Made by a program: the position numbers and the translations under genes
Part shown: positions 24,888-32,849 of the stretch, piece after piece
Layout: every line of letters begins with the position of its first letter
Position numbering within the stretch: the stretch's first letter is position 1
The notes under the pieces: model-generated
Database searches by the model: none
Told to the model about the DNA's origin: nothing
The model's input: only the letters and a program-made list of their open reading frames with translations
DNA from: an uncultured bacterium
Lineage (GTDB): Bacteria; Zixibacteria; MSB-5A5; CAIYYT01
NCBI GenBank assembly: GCA_963726455.1
Contig: CAVSCK010000004.1
Location: 576,001-640,000, forward strand
Direction of reading: 5' to 3'
DNA length: 64,000 nucleotides

Positions 24888-25685
24888 TTACTTGCTTGCC
24901 TTGGACGTGGTGTCAGCCGGAGTTCCGGGCGCCGGTTTGTTGGCTGGCGCGGCCTGAATCTGCGGCATAATCACTTGCTTGGCGAGGCCGGTCGGAATTG
25001 TGTAACGGGTACCGGCCGCATCATTCAACTGGAATGTAAAAGACTTCTTGAATTCCTGGTCCGTAACCGACGCCTGAATCCTAACCTTGATCTCTTTATC
25101 CTTGCCCGGCTTGATTTCCGAATCGGGGAGGTCGATCTTGAGGTAACCATAGGGCTGGCTGACTAGCTTCAGACGCACGGTGTTCTTGGAGACGTTCTTG
25201 ACGACAACTTTCATCTCTTTGTCGCGGTTCTTGTCGTCCCACCTGATCGTGCTCGCTGAGAGAGCAAGAGGCAAAAGAGAATCAGGTTTCTCATAAGTTG
25301 TCCCTTTGAACGTCAGCTGAAATGATGAGCGGTCGGGATCGTTACTGGTGACTGCGGCCGACTTGGTCACCGGCCCGTGGCTGCCGCGGGAGGCGGTGAA
25401 AATCAACTCCACTTCGGCGCTATCACCGGCGGCGACTACGTCTTTCTTGAGGGGCGCCTTGGTGCAACCGCATCCGGGTTGGACTTTGAGGATCTTCAGC
25501 GAATCGATTCCCTTGTTCAGAAAGAAGTAGGAGTGACTGACGGCCTCACCTGCAGGAATGTAGCCGAAGTCGAATGAAGTTTGATCGATATACAATTTAG
25601 CTCCGATCGAAGGGCTTGCCTGAGCCAGGGCGGAGCCGCCGGCGAGGAGCAAAATGGCCATAGTGATAGGACGAAGGTAGTACAT
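24888..25685 (-). CDS. Secreted DUF1573-like Ig-fold protein, Cys form (PGCGCT)
   Basis: Signal peptide, FDFG.I...VSH.Y.F.N.G.DSL.I.KVQPGCGCT, second Ig-like domain; GGAGG SD before ATG 25685. Confidence 0.85.
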   Translation of the reverse strand: MYYLRPITMAILLLAGGSALAQASPSIGAKLYIDQTSFDFGYIPAGEAVSHSYFFLNKGIDSLKILKVQPGCGCTKAPLKKDVVAAGDSAEVELIFTASRGSHGPVTKSAAVTSNDPDRSSFQLTFKGTTYEKPDSLLPLALSASTIRWDDKNRDKEMKVVVKNVSKNTVRLKLVSQPYGYLKIDLPDSEIKPGKDKEIKVRIQASVTDQEFKKSFTFQLNDAAGTRYTIPTGLAKQVIMPQIQAAPANKPAPGTPADTTSKASK

Positions 25686-25738
25686 GGTATCCTCCATTTC
25701 GTGGATATTTATATTGGTTCGGTTAACTTGCTACAGGA

Positions 25739-26443
25739 CTACGATAGCAACTTCCTCGCAGCCAGCCGCAGGAGACTGGTTGATTCGTTGCGGAAGATCG
25801 GAGCAATGTCGTCAATCTGGCAACAACCCAGTTTGAGAATGGCCTCGACGACAACTCGCGCGTCCTGCTCCGTCTTCAGGTCGGATATCGTCAGACGACA
25901 GGTTTCGCGACATTCACCAACAGAGAGACGGATTTCATTTGTTTCCAGAGTGTCCAGCAACGTGGAAGCTTTATCTCTTTCCATTCCCAGCGCACTCAGA
26001 AGGGAAGTAATTTTCGGATTCTCTTCCGCGATACTCTTCTCCACGCCGGCGATGGCAACCTGATATCCAACCACCTGCCTGACGTTAAATGGCACCAAGG
26101 CGGCAATGAGGAAGACCAAGGCCACGGAACCAACGGCTACCAGGTAACGAACTCTGGGGAGACTACCGGAGGCCCGTTCCCAAATCGACCACAGAACGCC
26201 GGGGCGAGTCTCGGCTGCAGCCGCTTTCAACGCGACGCTCCGAACAACCTCCAACGGCAAATCATACGGCGGTTCGATATTGCTCACCGTGGCCAGATCA
26301 TCGATCAGGTTCTCTTCGGCCTGAACCAGCAAGCGGCAGTCGGCGCAGTTGCGGAGATGTTTCATCAACGCCTGGTCTTCAGCGCACTCGCTACGGCGCC
26401 ATTGGTGCAGTGCTAGTCGCTTTCTGGCGTGGCGGCACAACAT
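25739..26443 (-). CDS. Zinc-binding (ZAS/zf-HC2) membrane anti-sigma factor
   Basis: HLRNCADC motif, one TM helix, overlaps the sigma gene. Confidence 0.75.
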   Translation of the reverse strand: MLCRHARKRLALHQWRRSECAEDQALMKHLRNCADCRLLVQAEENLIDDLATVSNIEPPYDLPLEVVRSVALKAAAAETRPGVLWSIWERASGSLPRVRYLVAVGSVALVFLIAALVPFNVRQVVGYQVAIAGVEKSIAEENPKITSLLSALGMERDKASTLLDTLETNEIRLSVGECRETCRLTISDLKTEQDARVVVEAILKLGCCQIDDIAPIFRNESTSLLRLAARKLLS

Positions 26444-26982
26444 GTGCGTTCATCTCCTCGATCAGAGTTACGATTGTCAGTCCGGCAAAAGGCACCGGCC
26501 AATTTCTTTCTCATCTTGTCGCGCGCGCGTGACAGGCGCATCTTTATTGCCCCTTGAGACTGGCCCACCAATTCCGCGAGTTCAGCAATCCGCCATCCCT
26601 CCAGTTCAGCCAGCGTCACCAGAATGCGATCATCGGGCGAGAGAGCGGACAAGGCAATATCCAGTCTTCTTCTCGCAGCATACTGTCGCGCAGGATTTTC
26701 AGAACCGATCCGGGTATCACTTTCTGACGACACCGGTATCAATTTTTTCCACCAAGCGCTCCGAAAGCGGGCCTTGAATGAATGGTTGATGATCTGATAG
26801 AACCAGGGCCGGAAGGAGTCGATCTGTCTGAGCCCGGCGTAACCCCGATAGGCCGCAATCACGGAATCCTGGTACAAGTCATCTCCTTCTTCGCAGTTGC
26901 CCACGAGGCGACTGCAGTAAGCTCTGGCTTTCCGATGTTCGGTTTCGATCAGCTGCCAGAATGTGGTGCTCTGTCGTTCCAC
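26413..26982 (-). CDS. ECF RNA polymerase sigma factor
   Basis: DDLYQDS..AY, FRPWFYQI..H, ELEG..IAELA..VG.SQGAIKMRLSRAR; GTG start at 26982. Confidence 0.9.
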   Translation of the reverse strand: MERQSTTFWQLIETEHRKARAYCSRLVGNCEEGDDLYQDSVIAAYRGYAGLRQIDSFRPWFYQIINHSFKARFRSAWWKKLIPVSSESDTRIGSENPARQYAARRRLDIALSALSPDDRILVTLAELEGWRIAELAELVGQSQGAIKMRLSRARDKMRKKLAGAFCRTDNRNSDRGDERTCCAATPESD

Positions 26983-26992
26983 TTGCTTATAA

Positions 26993-27020
26993 AGATGCTT
27001 TGTAGCGCCAAAAGGTAACA
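26993..27020 (-). promoter_or_regulatory. Candidate ECF autoregulatory promoter
   Basis: TGTTACC-N15-GCATCT ending 10 nt before the sigma GTG. Confidence 0.45.
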
Positions 27021-27115
27021 ATATTTCGCATGGATGTCCGAATTGCCTCCGAATATGGTACAACCGCCGGGTATCCAGCGATTAGGGAATTGAAATCATG
27101 GAGTTAGCGGATAAG

Positions 27116-27143
27116 AAAAGCGCCGATCTTGCGATCGGCGCTT
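27116..27143 (-). terminator. Intrinsic terminator after the TGA-containing DUF1573 gene
   Basis: AAGCGCCGATC-ttgc-GATCGGCGCTT perfect stem, T tract on the minus strand. Confidence 0.7.
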
Positions 27144-27173: not shown

Positions 27174-27974
27174 CTACTTGCTCGTCTTGGCCGAGGTGTC
27201 AGCCGGAGTGCTGGGCGCCGGCTTCTTGGCGGGCGCGGCCTGAATCTGCGGCATAATCACTTGCTTGGCGAGGACGGTCGGAATCGTGTAACGACTTCCG
27301 GTCGAATCATTCACCTGGAAGGTGAAAGACTTCTTGAATTCCTGGTCCGTAACCGACGGCTGAATCTTAACCTTGATCTCTTTATCCTTGCCCGCCTTGA
27401 TTTCCGCATCGGGAAGGTCGATCTTGAGGTAGCCATAGGGCTGGCTGACAAGATTCAAGCGCACAGAGTTCTTGGAGACGTTCTTAACGACGACTTTCAT
27501 CTCTTTGTCGCGATTTTTCTCGTCCCACTTGATCGTTGCTGCAGACAAGGTCAGCGGCGACAGTGAATCGGGGCTGTCATAAGTCTTGGCTTTCAGCGAA
27601 AGCTGGAAATTGCCGCGATCATTGTCGTTGCACGTCACGGTCGCACTCTTGGTGACCGGTCCGGCATGTCCTCCCTTAGTGGAGGTAAAAATCAGTTCAA
27701 CTTCAGCGCTGTCACCGACAGCGACCACTTCTTTCTTAAGTGGAGCTTTGGTGCAGCCTCAGCCAGGCTGGACTTTCAGAATCTTGAGAGAGTCCGTGCC
27801 CTTGCTGAGGAAGAAGAACGAATGACTGACTGTTTCGCCACCGGGGATGTACCCGAAATCGAAACTAGTCTGGTCGATATAGAGTTTGGCGCCCTGACCC
27901 TTGGTCTCCTGTGCCAACGCGACGGCTGCGACCATAAGCAGAACGGACAAACCTATAAGAGCTAGTTTCCTCAA
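27174..27974 (-). CDS. Secreted DUF1573-like protein with in-frame TGA (27759-27761) at the first Cys of CGC; candidate selenoprotein (PG-U-GCT)
   Basis: ORFs 27759-27986 and 27174-27728 are in frame and read KVQPG*GCTKAPLKKEVV, against KVQPGCGCTKAPLKKDVV in the paralog; SD GGAGGA before TTG 27974. Confidence 0.75.
27707..27753 (-). promoter_or_regulatory. Candidate bacterial SECIS-like structure 3' of the TGA
   Basis: CCACUU-aagaaag-AAGUGG (loop 21 nt after UGA) and CGCUGUC-ggu-GACAGCG (loop 42 nt after UGA). Confidence 0.55.
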
Positions 27975-28098
27975 CTTGTCCTCCATAGGTTCATAGGTAT
28001 TTTCATGTGTCTAATTTACTCATTTCCATGTCGACTGTCAACTTCTAACCTCATTATACCCGCGTACAATGAGTGTACGTCGAGTATTTGCGTAATTC

Positions 28099-28836
28099 TT
28101 AGCTCTTCTTTTCGCTCGCCTTGAGCGCGGGTTGCGACTCCGCCACGTGAATCGGGAATGTATAGCGGGACTTCGCGGCGTCCGACATCTCAATGGTGAA
28201 TGACTTATTGTAATACTTCTCCTTCAGGCCGGTTTTCAGGTGGATGACCACATCGGCTTTGGCGCCGGGTGCGATTGGTTCCTGTGGCAGGTCAATCGAA
28301 ACCAGGTCTTCCGGAGATACAACCAGTCTTGCCGTGAGCGGCTCTTTCGAGACATTCTTCAGAACCACGGAAACGGATTTCCCTTTATCCGTCGACGACA
28401 ATCGCACTCTTCTGTTTTTCAATACTGCGATCGGGCCGGTCGACTCATCGGTGGTATAGATGTAGGTGCGGAATGATACTTCGTACTGGCTGGCGGCCGG
28501 GTCGTTGCAGTAAATCGTTGCCGTGCGCGTCTGCTTCTTTTCACGTTTGTTGTTGTCGAAGATGATCTCAAGAGGCAGACTATCATTAACGGCAATCACG
28601 CCCTCGCTGATTGGCGCCTTCGTACATCCGCAAGTTAGCTTCACGCGAAAGATTCGCAGGGAATCGGTACCGATGTTATTTACCCAATAGGTGTGCGAAA
28701 CGATGCTGGAATCCGGCATGAAGCCCATCTCGAACGACGGTTCGACCACTAGTAAGCGCGGGCCTCGCTGCTGGCCAAACACTACGCCGCTTAAAATCAA
28801 GGAAACGATCAAACCGAACTTTGTAACCAGCCGCAT
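28099..28836 (-). CDS. Secreted DUF1573-like protein (TCGCT)
   Basis: Signal peptide, VSHTY...N.GTDSLRI.RVKLTCGCTKAP, KSFTIE..D...RYT.P. Confidence 0.82.
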   Translation of the reverse strand: MRLVTKFGLIVSLILSGVVFGQQRGPRLLVVEPSFEMGFMPDSSIVSHTYWVNNIGTDSLRIFRVKLTCGCTKAPISEGVIAVNDSLPLEIIFDNNKREKKQTRTATIYCNDPAASQYEVSFRTYIYTTDESTGPIAVLKNRRVRLSSTDKGKSVSVVLKNVSKEPLTARLVVSPEDLVSIDLPQEPIAPGAKADVVIHLKTGLKEKYYNKSFTIEMSDAAKSRYTFPIHVAESQPALKASEKKS

Positions 28837-28882: not shown

Positions 28883-29623
28883 TCACTCCACCAAACTGAT
28901 TGGCACTGTAAAACGCGTCATTTTGTTATCTGTGACGGCAAAAGTCAAGTACTCTTGAAACTTTGACACGGGGCAGGCCGGATTAAACTTGATCCTGATC
29001 TTGTCGCTGCCGCCCTTCGGGATCGGCTTGCCCGGCAGTTCAACGCTGCAGAATGATCTGTTAGGCATTGTGACCAGGCGCGCTTGTATGGCTACGCCGG
29101 CGAGATTGCGAATCTCAATTTCGGCTTCGGTGGCGCCTTTCTTCTTGAATACAACGCTGTCCGGTACGACCCGAACCGCCGCTGCAATATCACCCGGCCG
29201 ATAGCTGAATCCGCGCAGTTGAATGGTGACTTTGCCGATGTTGGTATCATTGAGGAGTAGTGAGGGGGTCTTGATGAACTGGCCGCTACTGGTCGCAGCC
29301 AGATTCAGAGTGATGTTTACCGTGAGTGTCTCTCCGGGCGCCGCCACGCGATCGGGAACCGGGATTTTGGTGCAACCACAGCCGGCCGCAGTTCTGATCA
29401 CGCGCAAGGTGGAGTCGGAATGGTTCACAATTTGGACCTGATGCTTAAGTAGCGTGCCAAAGGGTACATAACCGTAGTCAAAATCTGCACCAATGATCTG
29501 CACCGGTGAACTAGCGGCACTGGCGGATGCGAATAATGCCAGCAGCGCAAGAATCGACAATGCGGAGCTACAAACGGCGCGACTCCACTTTCGGTAACTT
29601 ACGAATGATCTTAAACTTAGCAT
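28883..29623 (-). CDS. Secreted DUF1573-like protein (GCGCT)
   Basis: Signal-like hydrophobic stretch, FDYGYVP, AAGCGCTKIP, RFTVP; start uncertain. Confidence 0.75.
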   Translation of the reverse strand: MLSLRSFVSYRKWSRAVCSSALSILALLALFASASAASSPVQIIGADFDYGYVPFGTLLKHQVQIVNHSDSTLRVIRTAAGCGCTKIPVPDRVAAPGETLTVNITLNLAATSSGQFIKTPSLLLNDTNIGKVTIQLRGFSYRPGDIAAAVRVVPDSVVFKKKGATEAEIEIRNLAGVAIQARLVTMPNRSFCSVELPGKPIPKGGSDKIRIKFNPACPVSKFQEYLTFAVTDNKMTRFTVPISLVE

Positions 29624-29728
29624 TATCGAACGCAACTGACGAGCATACCTCTGCTTCGCATTTTTCCTTTTATACAAGGATCGGCAGAAGCGGTCCAAAC
29701 ATTTTTGGCCAAAACTCGATAAAAATGA

Positions 29729-29796: not shown

Positions 29797-30411
29797 ATGG
29801 TTCCTTACGAAGACCTTACAGACCGACAGCGGGCGATTTACGCCTACATCGAGGAGCGGATCAACCGGGACGGCCAGCCGCCTACGATTCGCGAAATCGG
29901 CCAGAAGTTCGGGATTTCGTCGACCAACGGCGTGCGCTCGTTTCTCAATGCGCTGATCAAGAAAGGCTACATCTCAAAGTCCTCGGCCGTGGCGCGCGGA
30001 ATTCGGCTGGTCAAGGAAAACGCCGAGGCCATGATGATACCGCTGGTTGGCCAGGTGGCAGCCGGCATGCCGCTGACGGCGGAGGAGAATATCTCCGAAC
30101 GGATCGTTGTCGATCGCTCGTTTGCGCCGTCGGGGGATTTGTTCACGCTCAGGGTCAAGGGCGACAGCATGAAGAACGCCGGTATTTTCAACGGCGACTT
30201 TGTGCTGGTTCGCAAGCAGCCGTCGGCGAGTGCGGGCGATATTGTTGTGGCGGTGATCGGGGATGAGGCGACGGTCAAGCGCTACTTTCCCGAACGCAAA
30301 CATGTGCGGCTGCAACCGGAGAACGAGGCGTTCGGACCGATCATTATCGAACGCAGCGCGCCGGGATTCTATCTCGCGGGCAAAGTTGTCGGCTTGATGC
30401 GCCGGATGTGA
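29797..30411 (+). CDS. lexA: SOS repressor LexA
   Basis: LTDRQ, PPTIREI, VAAG cleavage site, GDSM, ATVKR. Confidence 0.96.
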   Translation: MVPYEDLTDRQRAIYAYIEERINRDGQPPTIREIGQKFGISSTNGVRSFLNALIKKGYISKSSAVARGIRLVKENAEAMMIPLVGQVAAGMPLTAEENISERIVVDRSFAPSGDLFTLRVKGDSMKNAGIFNGDFVLVRKQPSASAGDIVVAVIGDEATVKRYFPERKHVRLQPENEAFGPIIIERSAPGFYLAGKVVGLMRRM

Positions 30412-30450
30412 GAAATGGCGTTAGGTGGTTCACGCTTGATTGCCTGGTTT

Positions 30451-30519
30451 GTCATTCCCGCGCAAGCGGGAATCCAGATATTGACTGACCGTGTCATTCC
30501 CGCGCAGGCGGGAATCCAG
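30451..30519. repeat. Two direct copies of a 27-bp palindromic element GTCATTCCCGCGCA(A/G)GCGGGAATCCAG (REP/RPE/dRS3-like)
   Basis: Copies at 30451-30477 and 30493-30519 differ at one base; ATTCCC-N8-GGGAAT core. Confidence 0.85.
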
Positions 30520-30536
30520 TATTAGAATGACGTACT

Positions 30537-30785
30537 ATGTACCAAGACCTTGACGACGACATCGAAGTGATCGCGCTGTTCGAGCGCAACAAGCTGAAGC
30601 CATGCCGTTTTCGCTGGCGCGGCAAGGTCTACAAAGTCACGCGCATCACCGGCGACTGGGCCAGTGATGTCGGTCAGTCCAAGCTTCGTTATTATGCCGT
30701 TGTCGATTCCTCATCCAATTTCTTCCAACTCTGCTATGACGAACGCCTGATCAGTTGGAAGGTCGCCAAGGTGTGGGTGGAGTAA
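30537..30785 (+). CDS. Small DUF6504-like protein downstream of lexA
   Basis: P..FRWRG..Y.V..I...W...YY.V...F.L.YD....W pattern. Confidence 0.65.
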   Translation: MYQDLDDDIEVIALFERNKLKPCRFRWRGKVYKVTRITGDWASDVGQSKLRYYAVVDSSSNFFQLCYDERLISWKVAKVWVE

Positions 30786-30923: not shown

Positions 30924-32849
30924 GTGTGCGCGTTTGCGACGTTGCACGGTGCGACGCGGTATGTTTCGCATTCAGGGAGTAACGAAGCGCCGTATACGTC
31001 GTGGGAAACGGCAGCCAATACGATAGAAGCCGCTAATCTCTCGATGCTGTCCGGTGACACAATGTATGTCGATACGGGGAGTTTCCAACTTACGCAGACT
31101 ATAGTCCTGCCCTCCAAGATCACTCTGCGCGGCAAGGGGATGGATTCGACAACGATTCTCGGCGACACGACGTTTTATGACATGTTCAAACCGGGAGATT
31201 CTACTTATGTCGAGGACATTTATTTTCGGGGCAACAAGTGTTTCCGGGGACTCAGCAAATACGCTTACGAAGGGCTTTGGAATTGGTGGGTGAACAGGTG
31301 CAGGTTCTCCCAATTCTCTTCGGAATCAATCTTATGCGACGAAACGGGGTATCTGCAAATCACACTTTGCCGCTTTGAAGATTGGGGTGGTTGGGGGGGG
31401 GCTTTTTCCGTCAGAGATGCCGGTGATTGCCGCATCACAAATTGCACCTTCTATGACCCTTCCGGAAGACTTCCGCTCGGCGATTTCACCTTCAATACGA
31501 ACAGTCAAATCGTGTTCGACAGCAATGTCGTTGTTGGTTGTGGCGGACCAGCCATCGCTGGCGTCGTTGGAGGCGGTGGATTCATCATGAAGTACAATTT
31601 GTTCTACGGTAAATCGGGCCTATTCGGCGTCGTGGGAGGAAGAGGCGACCTTGACATACAATTCAACAGCTTCTATGTGGACGTCCCCTCACAGTTTATA
31701 CCCGATGTCACCGTGATTTTTGTTCACGGATACGGATTACGCCATTGCTTTATCTATAACAATATAGTTGCCGGCGCGAATGTGAGGGTCGTACTTCCCG
31801 ACGAGATTCCTGACACTGCGGACGTTCGGGTGGCCTACAACGACTTCTACTCGACCGTGCAGACCGACAGATGGCTCGTTGGGTTAGTCTCTGGATCTGG
31901 CCCGCTCGACTCGGTTAATAGCAACGTCTTCGCCGATCCGATGTATGTCGATCCCGACAATGGTGATCTCCGTTTGCAGAAAGGTTCGCCCTGCATTGAT
32001 GCGGGGGCGCCCTGGATTCTCGATCAGGACGGCACGCGCTCGGACATAGGGGCGCTCGGAGGTCCCGGCGGTTCGGTATATCTCTATCAGGATTTGCCCC
32101 CAAAAGCTCCCGCGAAATTCACGGCGGGACCACGGGAAGGTCGGGTGATCCTCGGCTGGGAACGGGCCAGCGAGAGTGACTTTCGGAATTACGTTCTCTT
32201 TCGAGCAGTTGAGCCGAACGCTCCCCTCGACTCACAGCAAGTCTTCGCCTATCTCGACCGATCCGGCCGGACGACGGACGACATTCGCAAGAACATGTTG
32301 CCCTTCGAGGACGGCGGCAAGGAGCTTGACCTAGAGCAGTACATCCCGAAGTACGCCTTACGGGATTCGCGACGAAGCTACTTCGTCGACTGGCACCCCA
32401 TTGACACCGCAACATCTTACTACACGCTTGTAGCGGTAGACAGTTCAGGGCTGGTGTCTGACGCAGGTGTTGTTCAGGTAAACCCACCGCAAGCAGTGGG
32501 GCACCCCGTCATCGAAGACAGCGCGGAAAACACCGTGTCTGTCGGCGTGCCGGACAGCGCCTATTTGGAACCCAACTATCCTAATCCTTTTAATGCAACT
32601 ACCGCTCTTGTATACAATCTTCCTGCTCTCGGCGCGCAACCGGCGCCGGTGCATATTGAGATCTTCAACACCTTGGGGCAGAAAGTCAAGACACTGGTCG
32701 ACGAACGCCAGTCGTCGGGGCGACATACGGCTTACTGGAACGGAGACGATGATTACGGGAGATCTTTAAGCAGCGGAATCTATTTCTGCAGATTGGAGGT
32801 GTCGGGAATCGAGTTTGTCAAGAGTGGGAAGATGATCATTCTCAAGTGA
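30924..32849 (+). CDS. Secreted beta-helix (pectin-lyase-like) protein with Fn3-like domain and FlgD/T9SS-type C-terminal tag; start uncertain
   Basis: YVSHSGSN..PYTSW.TAA, LQKGSPCIDAG..DIGA, NYPNPFN...WNG.D..G..SSGIYF...KMIILK. Confidence 0.75.
   Translation: MCAFATLHGATRYVSHSGSNEAPYTSWETAANTIEAANLSMLSGDTMYVDTGSFQLTQTIVLPSKITLRGKGMDSTTILGDTTFYDMFKPGDSTYVEDIYFRGNKCFRGLSKYAYEGLWNWWVNRCRFSQFSSESILCDETGYLQITLCRFEDWGGWGGAFSVRDAGDCRITNCTFYDPSGRLPLGDFTFNTNSQIVFDSNVVVGCGGPAIAGVVGGGGFIMKYNLFYGKSGLFGVVGGRGDLDIQFNSFYVDVPSQFIPDVTVIFVHGYGLRHCFIYNNIVAGANVRVVLPDEIPDTADVRVAYNDFYSTVQTDRWLVGLVSGSGPLDSVNSNVFADPMYVDPDNGDLRLQKGSPCIDAGAPWILDQDGTRSDIGALGGPGGSVYLYQDLPPKAPAKFTAGPREGRVILGWERASESDFRNYVLFRAVEPNAPLDSQQVFAYLDRSGRTTDDIRKNMLPFEDGGKELDLEQYIPKYALRDSRRSYFVDWHPIDTATSYYTLVAVDSSGLVSDAGVVQVNPPQAVGHPVIEDSAENTVSVGVPDSAYLEPNYPNPFNATTALVYNLPALGAQPAPVHIEIFNTLGQKVKTLVDERQSSGRHTAYWNGDDDYGRSLSSGIYFCRLEVSGIEFVKSGKMIILK

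Follow-up and report, generated by a model that had tools for sequence, protein, structure and literature searches.

We analysed a 64,000-nucleotide stretch of DNA (the window) from an uncultured bacterium of the phylum Zixibacteria (lineage MSB-5A5; CAIYYT01), taken from the forward strand of contig CAVSCK010000004.1 (positions 576,001 to 640,000; assembly GCA_963726455.1). The host genome amounts to 3.64 Mb in five contigs, with the window located on the contig that we refer to as C4. Our subject is a minus-strand gene at 27174-27986 that belongs to a local array of genes for DUF1573 proteins and that carries an in-frame TGA. Open reading frame (ORF) listing and translation give 271 codons, with codon 76 as the lone in-frame TGA (27761-27759 on the minus strand, read as tca at 27759-27761 on the plus strand). 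The frame runs from the ATG at 27986 through ...KILKVQPG to the TGA, continues with GCTKAPLKKEVVAVGDS... and ends at the stop codon at 27174-27176; the 194 codons 3' of the TGA are open, and the product with TGA read as a residue is 270 residues long. The gene and its parts are as follows.

27174-27986, minus strand: putative full-length selenoprotein gene of the DUF1573/OS_HP2 type, TGA read as selenocysteine (Sec, U) at codon 76 (ORFs, translation, PF07610, NF041425)
27759-27761, minus strand: UGA at codon 76, the putative Sec codon that opens the U-G-C motif (alignment; common column in 26/26 distinct Sec forms)
27912-27986, minus strand: predicted signal peptide, residues 1-25, with a basic n-region, a hydrophobic core and A-L-A then Q-E (sequence reading; modelled helix 2-25)
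27585-27878, minus strand: DUF1573 / HYDIN-VesB-like immunoglobulin-like (Ig) domain, residues 37-134, with U76-G77-C78 and nearly invariant H55, D92, S93 and K113 (Pfam, conserved columns, beta-sandwich with a per-residue model confidence, pLDDT, above 90)
27270-27554, minus strand: predicted second beta-sandwich domain, residues 145-239 (modelled strands; weak Cep192-type Pfam matches; tandem ASH/Ig-like Foldseek matches)
27725-27743, minus strand: hairpin 1, CCACUU-AAGAAAG-AAGUGG, 16 nt after the UGA (folding; present in other Sec forms with other sequences and registers)
27707-27723, minus strand: hairpin 2, C-GCUGUC-GGU-GACAGC-G, across codons A89 V90 G91 D92 S93 (nucleotide invariance, covariation, signature search)

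Standard gene calling under translation table 11 splits the locus into a 75-residue ORF and a 184-residue ORF that starts at GTG 27728. The same split is found in public data: in a collection of 5.8 billion protein clusters the window gene is present only as a 184-residue piece starting at codon 87 (P0003). Among the 120 matches listed from this collection, 38 are pieces of 161-196 residues that cover 58-68% of the query, 37 of them besides the window gene. All eight pieces that we inspected, which include 'DUF1573 domain-containing protein' entries from Zixibacteria metagenome-assembled genomes, begin M/V-[VI]-A-V-G-D-S, at a point within the stretch that forms the hairpins.

Three neighbouring paralogs (24888-25697, 28099-28836 and 28883-29698) align the first Cys of an invariant C-G-C-T-K with codon 76; their local motifs are PGCGCT, LTCGCT and AGCGCT, respectively. 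With the first of the three (the Cys twin) the Sec protein shares 77% identity over the whole protein. The first-pass annotation of this DNA, made from the letters and their ORFs, had started from these very features: a TGA in place of the first Cys of the CGC motif of three paralogs, followed by intact, twin-like codons in a gene that standard callers would split. All three statements hold, and the selenocysteine reading drawn from them is supported by the Sec machinery of the genome, the conservation of the TGA column and an RNA structure downstream of the codon that is specific to Sec forms.

To place the TGA in its phylogenetic context we turned to related genomes. A six-frame search finds DUF1573 homologs in 60 of 61 genomes of the class, and at least 44 of the 61 have a match holding exactly one TGA (among the matches listed, 150 of 241), a flag that gives no position; the position was verified for the fetched loci only (tblastn). 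These loci contain 26 distinct TGA-bearing sequences, and in every one the TGA falls in the first-Cys column, PG-(TGA)-GCT[KQ]AP. The 26 Sec forms comprise the window gene, a copy on contig C5 of the same genome and 24 sequences from 20 other genomes, and span 21 genomes and six families of the class. The 35 distinct Cys forms read PG-C-GCT here, so that the TGA column aligns with Cys only, never with Trp or Gly. At the level of the phylum, a pattern search for the signature TGA-GGN-TGY-ACN-N27-GCTGTCGGNGACAGC returns an exact match in 193 of 285 genomes (141 of 198 in the high-quality subset; 94 of 130 by genus), and the reversed control pattern has no match in the same 285 genomes. The placement of TGA at this column is far beyond chance, and homologs with the TGA at the same position, in Sec-encoding genomes, are at hand. 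Because column and signature are conserved across the phylum and the control is empty, a sequencing error, an assembly error and a private nonsense mutation are excluded.

The C5 copy (C5:467647-468324) is a second Sec-type DUF1573 gene, 34% identical to the first, sharing its TGA column and its invariant hairpin 2. No third exact match to hairpin 2 occurs in the genome. Two other genomes (G024 and G048; loci L047 and L048) have tandem arrays of three DUF1573 paralogs that are all Sec forms, with hairpin 2 after each TGA. When 25 Sec and 33 Cys rows are placed in a maximum-likelihood tree, the two kinds interleave, with 14 Sec/Cys changes by parsimony, at least 8 of them forced by well-supported branches; such interleaving is usual for a Cys that is functionally important. 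One Cys (TGC) copy, at L053:1555-2250 on the minus strand, adjoins its Sec sibling and still has both hairpins that resemble a selenocysteine insertion sequence (SECIS), which suggests that Sec gave way to Cys, or that the gene was duplicated, very recently.

Does the genome encode the factors that decode UGA as Sec? The tRNA-Sec gene (selC) is detected by Rfam (RF01852, 70.9 bits) and by ARAGORN (anticodon TCA), and selA (TIGR00474, 515 bits), selB (TIGR00475, 303 bits) and selD (TIGR00476, 392 bits) all score over the curated cut-offs, so that the four genes to which the first-pass annotation had pointed are present. The genes for SelB, SelA and tRNA-Sec lie head to tail on one strand in a compact cluster (C3:128061-131394). 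The selD gene is located outside this cluster, at C4:1791814-1792734, and has one in-frame TGA of its own (...SCAG-TGA-AS...), by which SelD is, as read from its gene, also a selenoprotein in this genome. Its TGA is followed at about 13 nt by a conventional single 7-bp hairpin with a GUU loop, GGCCAAA-GUU-UUUGGCC. A second selD-like region at C3:645393-646257 consists of two adjacent pieces in different frames (profile positions 22-119 and 119-310) and could represent another copy of the gene, either frameshifted or split.

Sec decoding is general in the lineage: of the 61 class genomes searched, 57 have a selA match above the cut-off. With selA nearly universal, co-occurrence of Sec forms and Sec machinery does not discriminate; the single f1 genome with no selA match (G006, 89% complete) likewise has no TGA form listed, which is one case.

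The region directly 3' of the TGA holds two hairpins. The 6-bp core of hairpin 2 (27708-27722) begins 37 nt after the UGA (a 36-nt offset), and a seventh flanking pair extends it to 27707-27723. Its consensus, GCUGUC-GGN-GACAGC, is nucleotide-identical in nearly all Sec forms, every third codon position included, whereas at codons near it, such as Gly77 and Thr79, all synonyms are in use among the same forms. The perfect 6-bp stem is found in 24 of 26 Sec forms versus 3 of 35 Cys forms, and the GGN loop in every one of the 26 Sec forms; covariation is seen at the seventh pair (C-G in 16, U-A in 5, A-U in 1). Hairpin 1 behaves differently: its sequence and register vary by lineage, yet it folds in almost every Sec form. 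The mean free energy of the hairpin 1 window is -9.7 kcal/mol in Sec forms versus -3.1 in Cys forms encoding the same amino acids, a difference for which rank tests overstate the significance, the sequences being related. RNAalifold, applied to the 26 Sec forms, recovers hairpin 2 and misses hairpin 1, since the latter occurs in at least three registers; when one register is fixed, the pairing of hairpin 1 is only 65%, with modest covariation, and because of the several registers we relied on folding each sequence separately. The hairpin 1 of the window gene folds at -5.8 kcal/mol (the median across all Sec forms is -10.3), and the 65-nt composite fold of the region reaches -25 kcal/mol with z = -2.56.

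How does this element compare with the consensus bacterial SECIS, as described by the bSECISearch model? According to the part of a recent review that sets out this consensus, the loop has 3-9 nt with G in the first two loop positions (mostly G, then G or U), the stem has 4-16 bp, the distance from UGA to the apical loop is 16-37 nt, the minimum free energy is at most -7.5 kcal/mol, and some bacterial elements depart from the model (PMC13188914). Like the consensus element, both hairpins follow the UGA closely within the coding sequence. In hairpin 2 the loop has 3 nt and starts G-G, the stem has 6-7 bp and the free energy is about -9.7 kcal/mol; hairpin 1, with a 7-nt loop, a 6-bp stem and a distance of 21 nt, is within the limits in these three respects. 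Unlike the consensus, the Sec-DUF1573 element has a further, covarying hairpin in the space between the UGA and hairpin 2. Presumably hairpin 2 is the part that SelB binds and hairpin 1 a structural spacer. This two-hairpin SECIS, with its invariant hairpin just outside the consensus spacing, is the one feature of the gene that is mildly new.

Taken together, these observations make it very likely that 27174-27986 encodes a 270-residue secreted DUF1573/OS_HP2 selenoprotein. UGA codon 76 would be decoded as Sec by the genome's own SelA, SelB, SelC and SelD, guided by the coding-region RNA just 3' of the UGA, with the covarying, variable hairpin at 16 nt and the core of the invariant hairpin at 37 nt; this insertion mechanism is well supported by the sequence comparisons. 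Several results weigh against the assignment and its proposed chemistry. Hairpin 2 has its loop at a distance of 42 nt from the UGA (16-37 allowed), and hairpin 1 as found in this gene lacks a G at loop positions 1 and 2 and is, at -5.8 kcal/mol, too weak, so that neither hairpin alone meets every constraint of the consensus; an Rfam scan of 27500-27900 with E up to 10 yields two chance-level microRNA matches and no SECIS family. The best and only NCBIfam match, NF041425 ('OS_HP2 family (seleno)protein'), scores 74.3 bits against a curated cut-off of 100 (the Cys twin scores 80.0). Among the sequencing runs sought for the source of the DNA, none has more than 0.08 of the sampled words; read coverage of the codon is limited to short contigs of relatives, and a search for RNA or proteome data for the protein found none. 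Lastly, a Foldseek search of the Protein Data Bank (PDB) with the modelled structure gives no thioredoxin-like fold, oxidoreductase or metal-site match.

Could the TGA be a true stop, be it in a pseudogene, through an assembly error or in a locus with two products, a 75-residue secreted peptide and a 184-residue protein from GTG 27728? Table 11 calling yields exactly these two ORFs, public collections hold the 184-residue form together with the 37 further truncated relatives, and the sequencing runs have few of the sampled words. We nevertheless regard a true stop as very improbable. The TGA is kept in every Sec form and its signature in most genomes of the phylum; the frame and the PF07610 match (residues 37-134) run across it, in a part of the protein where the structural model is confident; the truncated product would be devoid of the signal peptide and of half of the first beta-sandwich, and the conserved hairpins overlie its internal 'start'. 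Short contigs of close relatives (151-787 nt, 80% likeness) span 27759-27761 in three sequencing runs, with no alternative letter reported at these positions. Just as improbable, in our estimate, is read-through that inserts something other than Sec, either by near-cognate Trp or Cys decoding or through reassignment of TGA. The one fact in its favour is that the frame is open under any code with TGA as a sense codon. Against it, long ORFs throughout the window are normally delimited under table 11, the TGA never aligns with Trp or Gly, the Sec system of the genome is complete, the RNA structure 3' of the codon is particular to Sec forms, and selD has a comparable hairpin after its own TGA.

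As a selenoprotein, the product belongs to a family that was first reported in 2007. OS_HP2 appears in Table 2 of Zhang and Gladyshev 2007 among the new selenoproteins of Olavius symbionts (PMC1976440), a 2008 table for the Global Ocean Sampling (GOS) data lists it as 'OS_HP2, pfam07610, UxC' (PMC2398784), and tables in later reviews name DUF1573 (PF07610) with a UGC motif as a selenoprotein family (PMC9312934, PMC13188914). The first-pass annotation had hoped for novelty, pending a search, and this does not stand: the gene is real but not new as a kind, being a new, unannotated member of a published selenoprotein family. With that family it shares the PF07610 domain, the position of Sec as the first residue of U-G-C (UxC), the abundance of Cys homologs and a prediction made by Sec/Cys pairing. 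It differs in its score below the NF041425 cut-off, on account of which we consider it a member of a divergent, probably Zixibacteria clade, and in having a second beta-sandwich domain and a signal peptide. The original members come from deltaproteobacterial worm symbionts and ocean samples, and no SECIS of OS_HP2 is shown in the passages covered, where the legend of Figure 5 of PMC1976440 concerns other families. A search of full-text literature, supplements not covered, for DUF1573 and for DUF1573 or Zixibacteria combined with selenoprotein returned no functional study and no account of the clade or its SECIS; where DUF1573 is named, it is in passing.

What kind of protein carries the U-G-C motif? 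All four proteins of the array match PF07610 above the gathering score, as well as PF22544 (HYDIN/VesB-like Ig domain); the Sec protein scores 92.8 bits for PF07610 (cut-off 26.1) over residues 37-134, spanning U76. An AlphaFold2 model built on a 58-row alignment (mean pLDDT 91.6, predicted TM-score 0.78) has a helix at residues 2-25 and two beta-sandwiches at about 35-136 and 145-239, with U76-G77-C78 after the strand 67-74. Among the columns that vary little or not at all are F42, G45, H55, G63, C/U76, G77, C78, T79, D92, S93 and K113 in the first part of the protein and N169, T222, D227, R232 and P236 in the second. The Foldseek search returned ASH/Ig-like proteins (E 4e-13 to 1e-8), namely Hydin and other ciliary central-apparatus proteins, CEP192 SPD-2, RbmA, a PapD-like chaperone and 2qsv, a Porphyromonas gingivalis protein of unknown function. 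The likeness is that of tandem beta-sandwiches; the query-normalised TM-scores are only about 0.3, owing to a different orientation of the domains, and none of these matches is annotated with a Cys or Sec active site. A sequence search of the PDB found no relative, its one match being a chance one (E = 0.39). The model strongly supports a mature protein of two ASH/Ig-like beta-sandwiches, in line with the Ig fold proposed in the first-pass annotation on which the PF22544 match also bears. As to the signal peptide proposed with it, the N-terminal sequence and the modelled helix, from which alone it is deduced, suggest one of the Sec (general secretion) type.

The U-G-C in the first domain would be the functional centre of this envelope protein, most likely cycling between selenol/thiol and selenenylsulfide as a redox site of the thiol-disulfide type. 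Because Foldseek gave no oxidoreductase or metal lead, this mechanism is drawn by analogy from other Sec/Cys pairs and from CXC motifs. Redox proteins with CXC motifs include Mia40 (CPC) and Erv2, which has a CGC tail, and CGC peptides serve as isomerase mimics. The motifs are alike in having two chalcogen residues with one small residue between, for which a strained, reactive (selenenyl)sulfide is plausible; the folds are unrelated and there is no homology, so that the comparison is a lead on the chemistry of the site, not on family membership. We infer, as the first-pass annotation did, that the CGC/U-G-C motif is redox- or metal-active, and between a thiol-disulfide-type redox site and metal or metalloid binding the choice appears roughly even. 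In the metal-binding alternative U-G-C, possibly together with His55, would be an envelope binding site for soft metals or metalloids, such as Cu, Hg, Zn or selenium/sulfur species, with no thiol-disulfide catalysis. It draws on the near-invariance of H55 alongside the invariant C/U76 and C78, and Ig-like periplasmic metal binders exist. The selenoprotein tables of two reviews, moreover, put DUF1573 together with several metal-handling families, such as mercuric transport/reductase-like, YHS and CobW-like proteins (PMC9312934, PMC13188914). On the other side, no metal-handling genes adjoin the array, whose neighbours are lexA, an alpha/beta hydrolase gene and a module with a sigma factor of the extracytoplasmic function (ECF) type, and Foldseek found no match to a metal-binding protein. 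In this specific form, metal binding seems to us rather unlikely, if far from negligible.

The genes and signals around the Sec gene are listed below.

24888-25697, minus strand: Cys twin (CGC) of the Sec gene (ORFs, Pfam, alignment, window identity)
25739-26443, minus strand: putative anti-sigma factor, overlapping the sigma factor gene, with H-x3-C-x2-C near the N terminus (no Pfam match)
26413-27063, minus strand: ECF-type sigma factor (sigma-70 r2/r4 and ECF matches)
27118-27143, minus strand: terminator-like hairpin of 11 pairs with a T-rich tail behind it, 31 nt past the stop codon (consensus scan; site count not above shuffles)
28013-28041, minus strand: promoter-like site upstream of the start codon, TTGACA, 17 nt, TAAATT, 10/12 matches (consensus scan; count not above shuffles)
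28099-28836, minus strand: Cys paralog (LTCGCT), directly upstream of the Sec gene in the same orientation (ORFs, Pfam, alignment)
28883-29698, minus strand: Cys paralog (AGCGCT), true start probably downstream of the listed TTG (ORFs, Pfam, alignment)

The Cys paralogs and orthologs have the two-domain architecture, the signal peptide and the CGCTKAPL motif in common with the Sec forms, and differ in having Cys for Sec, free synonymous codons and neither hairpin. The orthologs of the Cys twin differ, in addition, by their genomic setting, being embedded in a conserved module of ECF sigma factor, anti-sigma factor and DUF1573 protein. In three genomes of the same genus the gene order is lexA, DUF1573 paralog, Sec gene, alpha/beta hydrolase, and the genes for the ECF sigma factor, the putative anti-sigma factor and the Cys twin stand apart as a three-gene module that is conserved in the sister genus (seen at loci L028-L032, L034, L038, L039, L062 and L063). 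Only in the genome studied here is the module (25739-27063 plus 24888-25697) located between the Sec gene and the hydrolase gene; elsewhere the sigma/anti-sigma pair accompanies the Cys twin and has no link with the Sec gene.

The likeness between the Sec gene and its twin is unevenly distributed. The 3' 360 nt (27174-27536 versus 24888-25250) are 83-97% identical at the nucleotide level in 60-nt windows, as compared with 53-78% for the 5' halves. This looks like recent gene conversion between the two genes, which are about 1.5 kb apart, and the similar terminator hairpins after both stop codons fit it; with the 3' half far more identical than the 5' half, part of the likeness to the twin would be due to this conversion.

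Combining the RNA element with the gene neighbourhood, we tentatively suggest a wider scheme, possible but short of probable. The Sec-DUF1573 genes of this phylum would use a distinct two-part bacterial SECIS, in which an invariant GGN-loop hairpin at a fixed 36-nt offset binds SelB and a variable but always foldable spacer hairpin brings it within reach of the ribosome. Together with the ECF link of the Cys twins, DUF1573 would then be a non-thioredoxin, Ig-fold redox module of the envelope, with the first Cys/Sec of CGC as the active residue.

These findings leave the current understanding of selenoproteins unchanged. They do show that a published, uncharacterised family, DUF1573/OS_HP2 (UGC), is near-universal and often multi-copy in one uncultured phylum, as gauged by the signature in 193 of 285 genomes. 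The many Sec forms, with one invariant and one covarying hairpin, are good material for work on SelB recognition and on the spacing rules of bacterial SECIS elements, and the frequent Sec/Cys interchange marks the first Cys of CGC as the residue at which to probe DUF1573 function. There is also a concrete fix to be made: public annotation systematically cuts Sec-DUF1573 genes to about 180 residues, and the NF041425 cut-off misses the clade.

Two further observations concern the surroundings of the array. The lexA gene and a small DUF6504 gene (29797-30785) diverge from the DUF1573 array, and their adjacency to it recurs in distant members of the class (L044, L045, L047, L048, L052, L064 and L065). 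Beyond them, 30924-32849 encodes a 641-residue beta-helix protein with a weak C-terminal match to FlgD-Ig / Por secretion tail models, which may be a cargo of the type IX secretion system (T9SS) kind.

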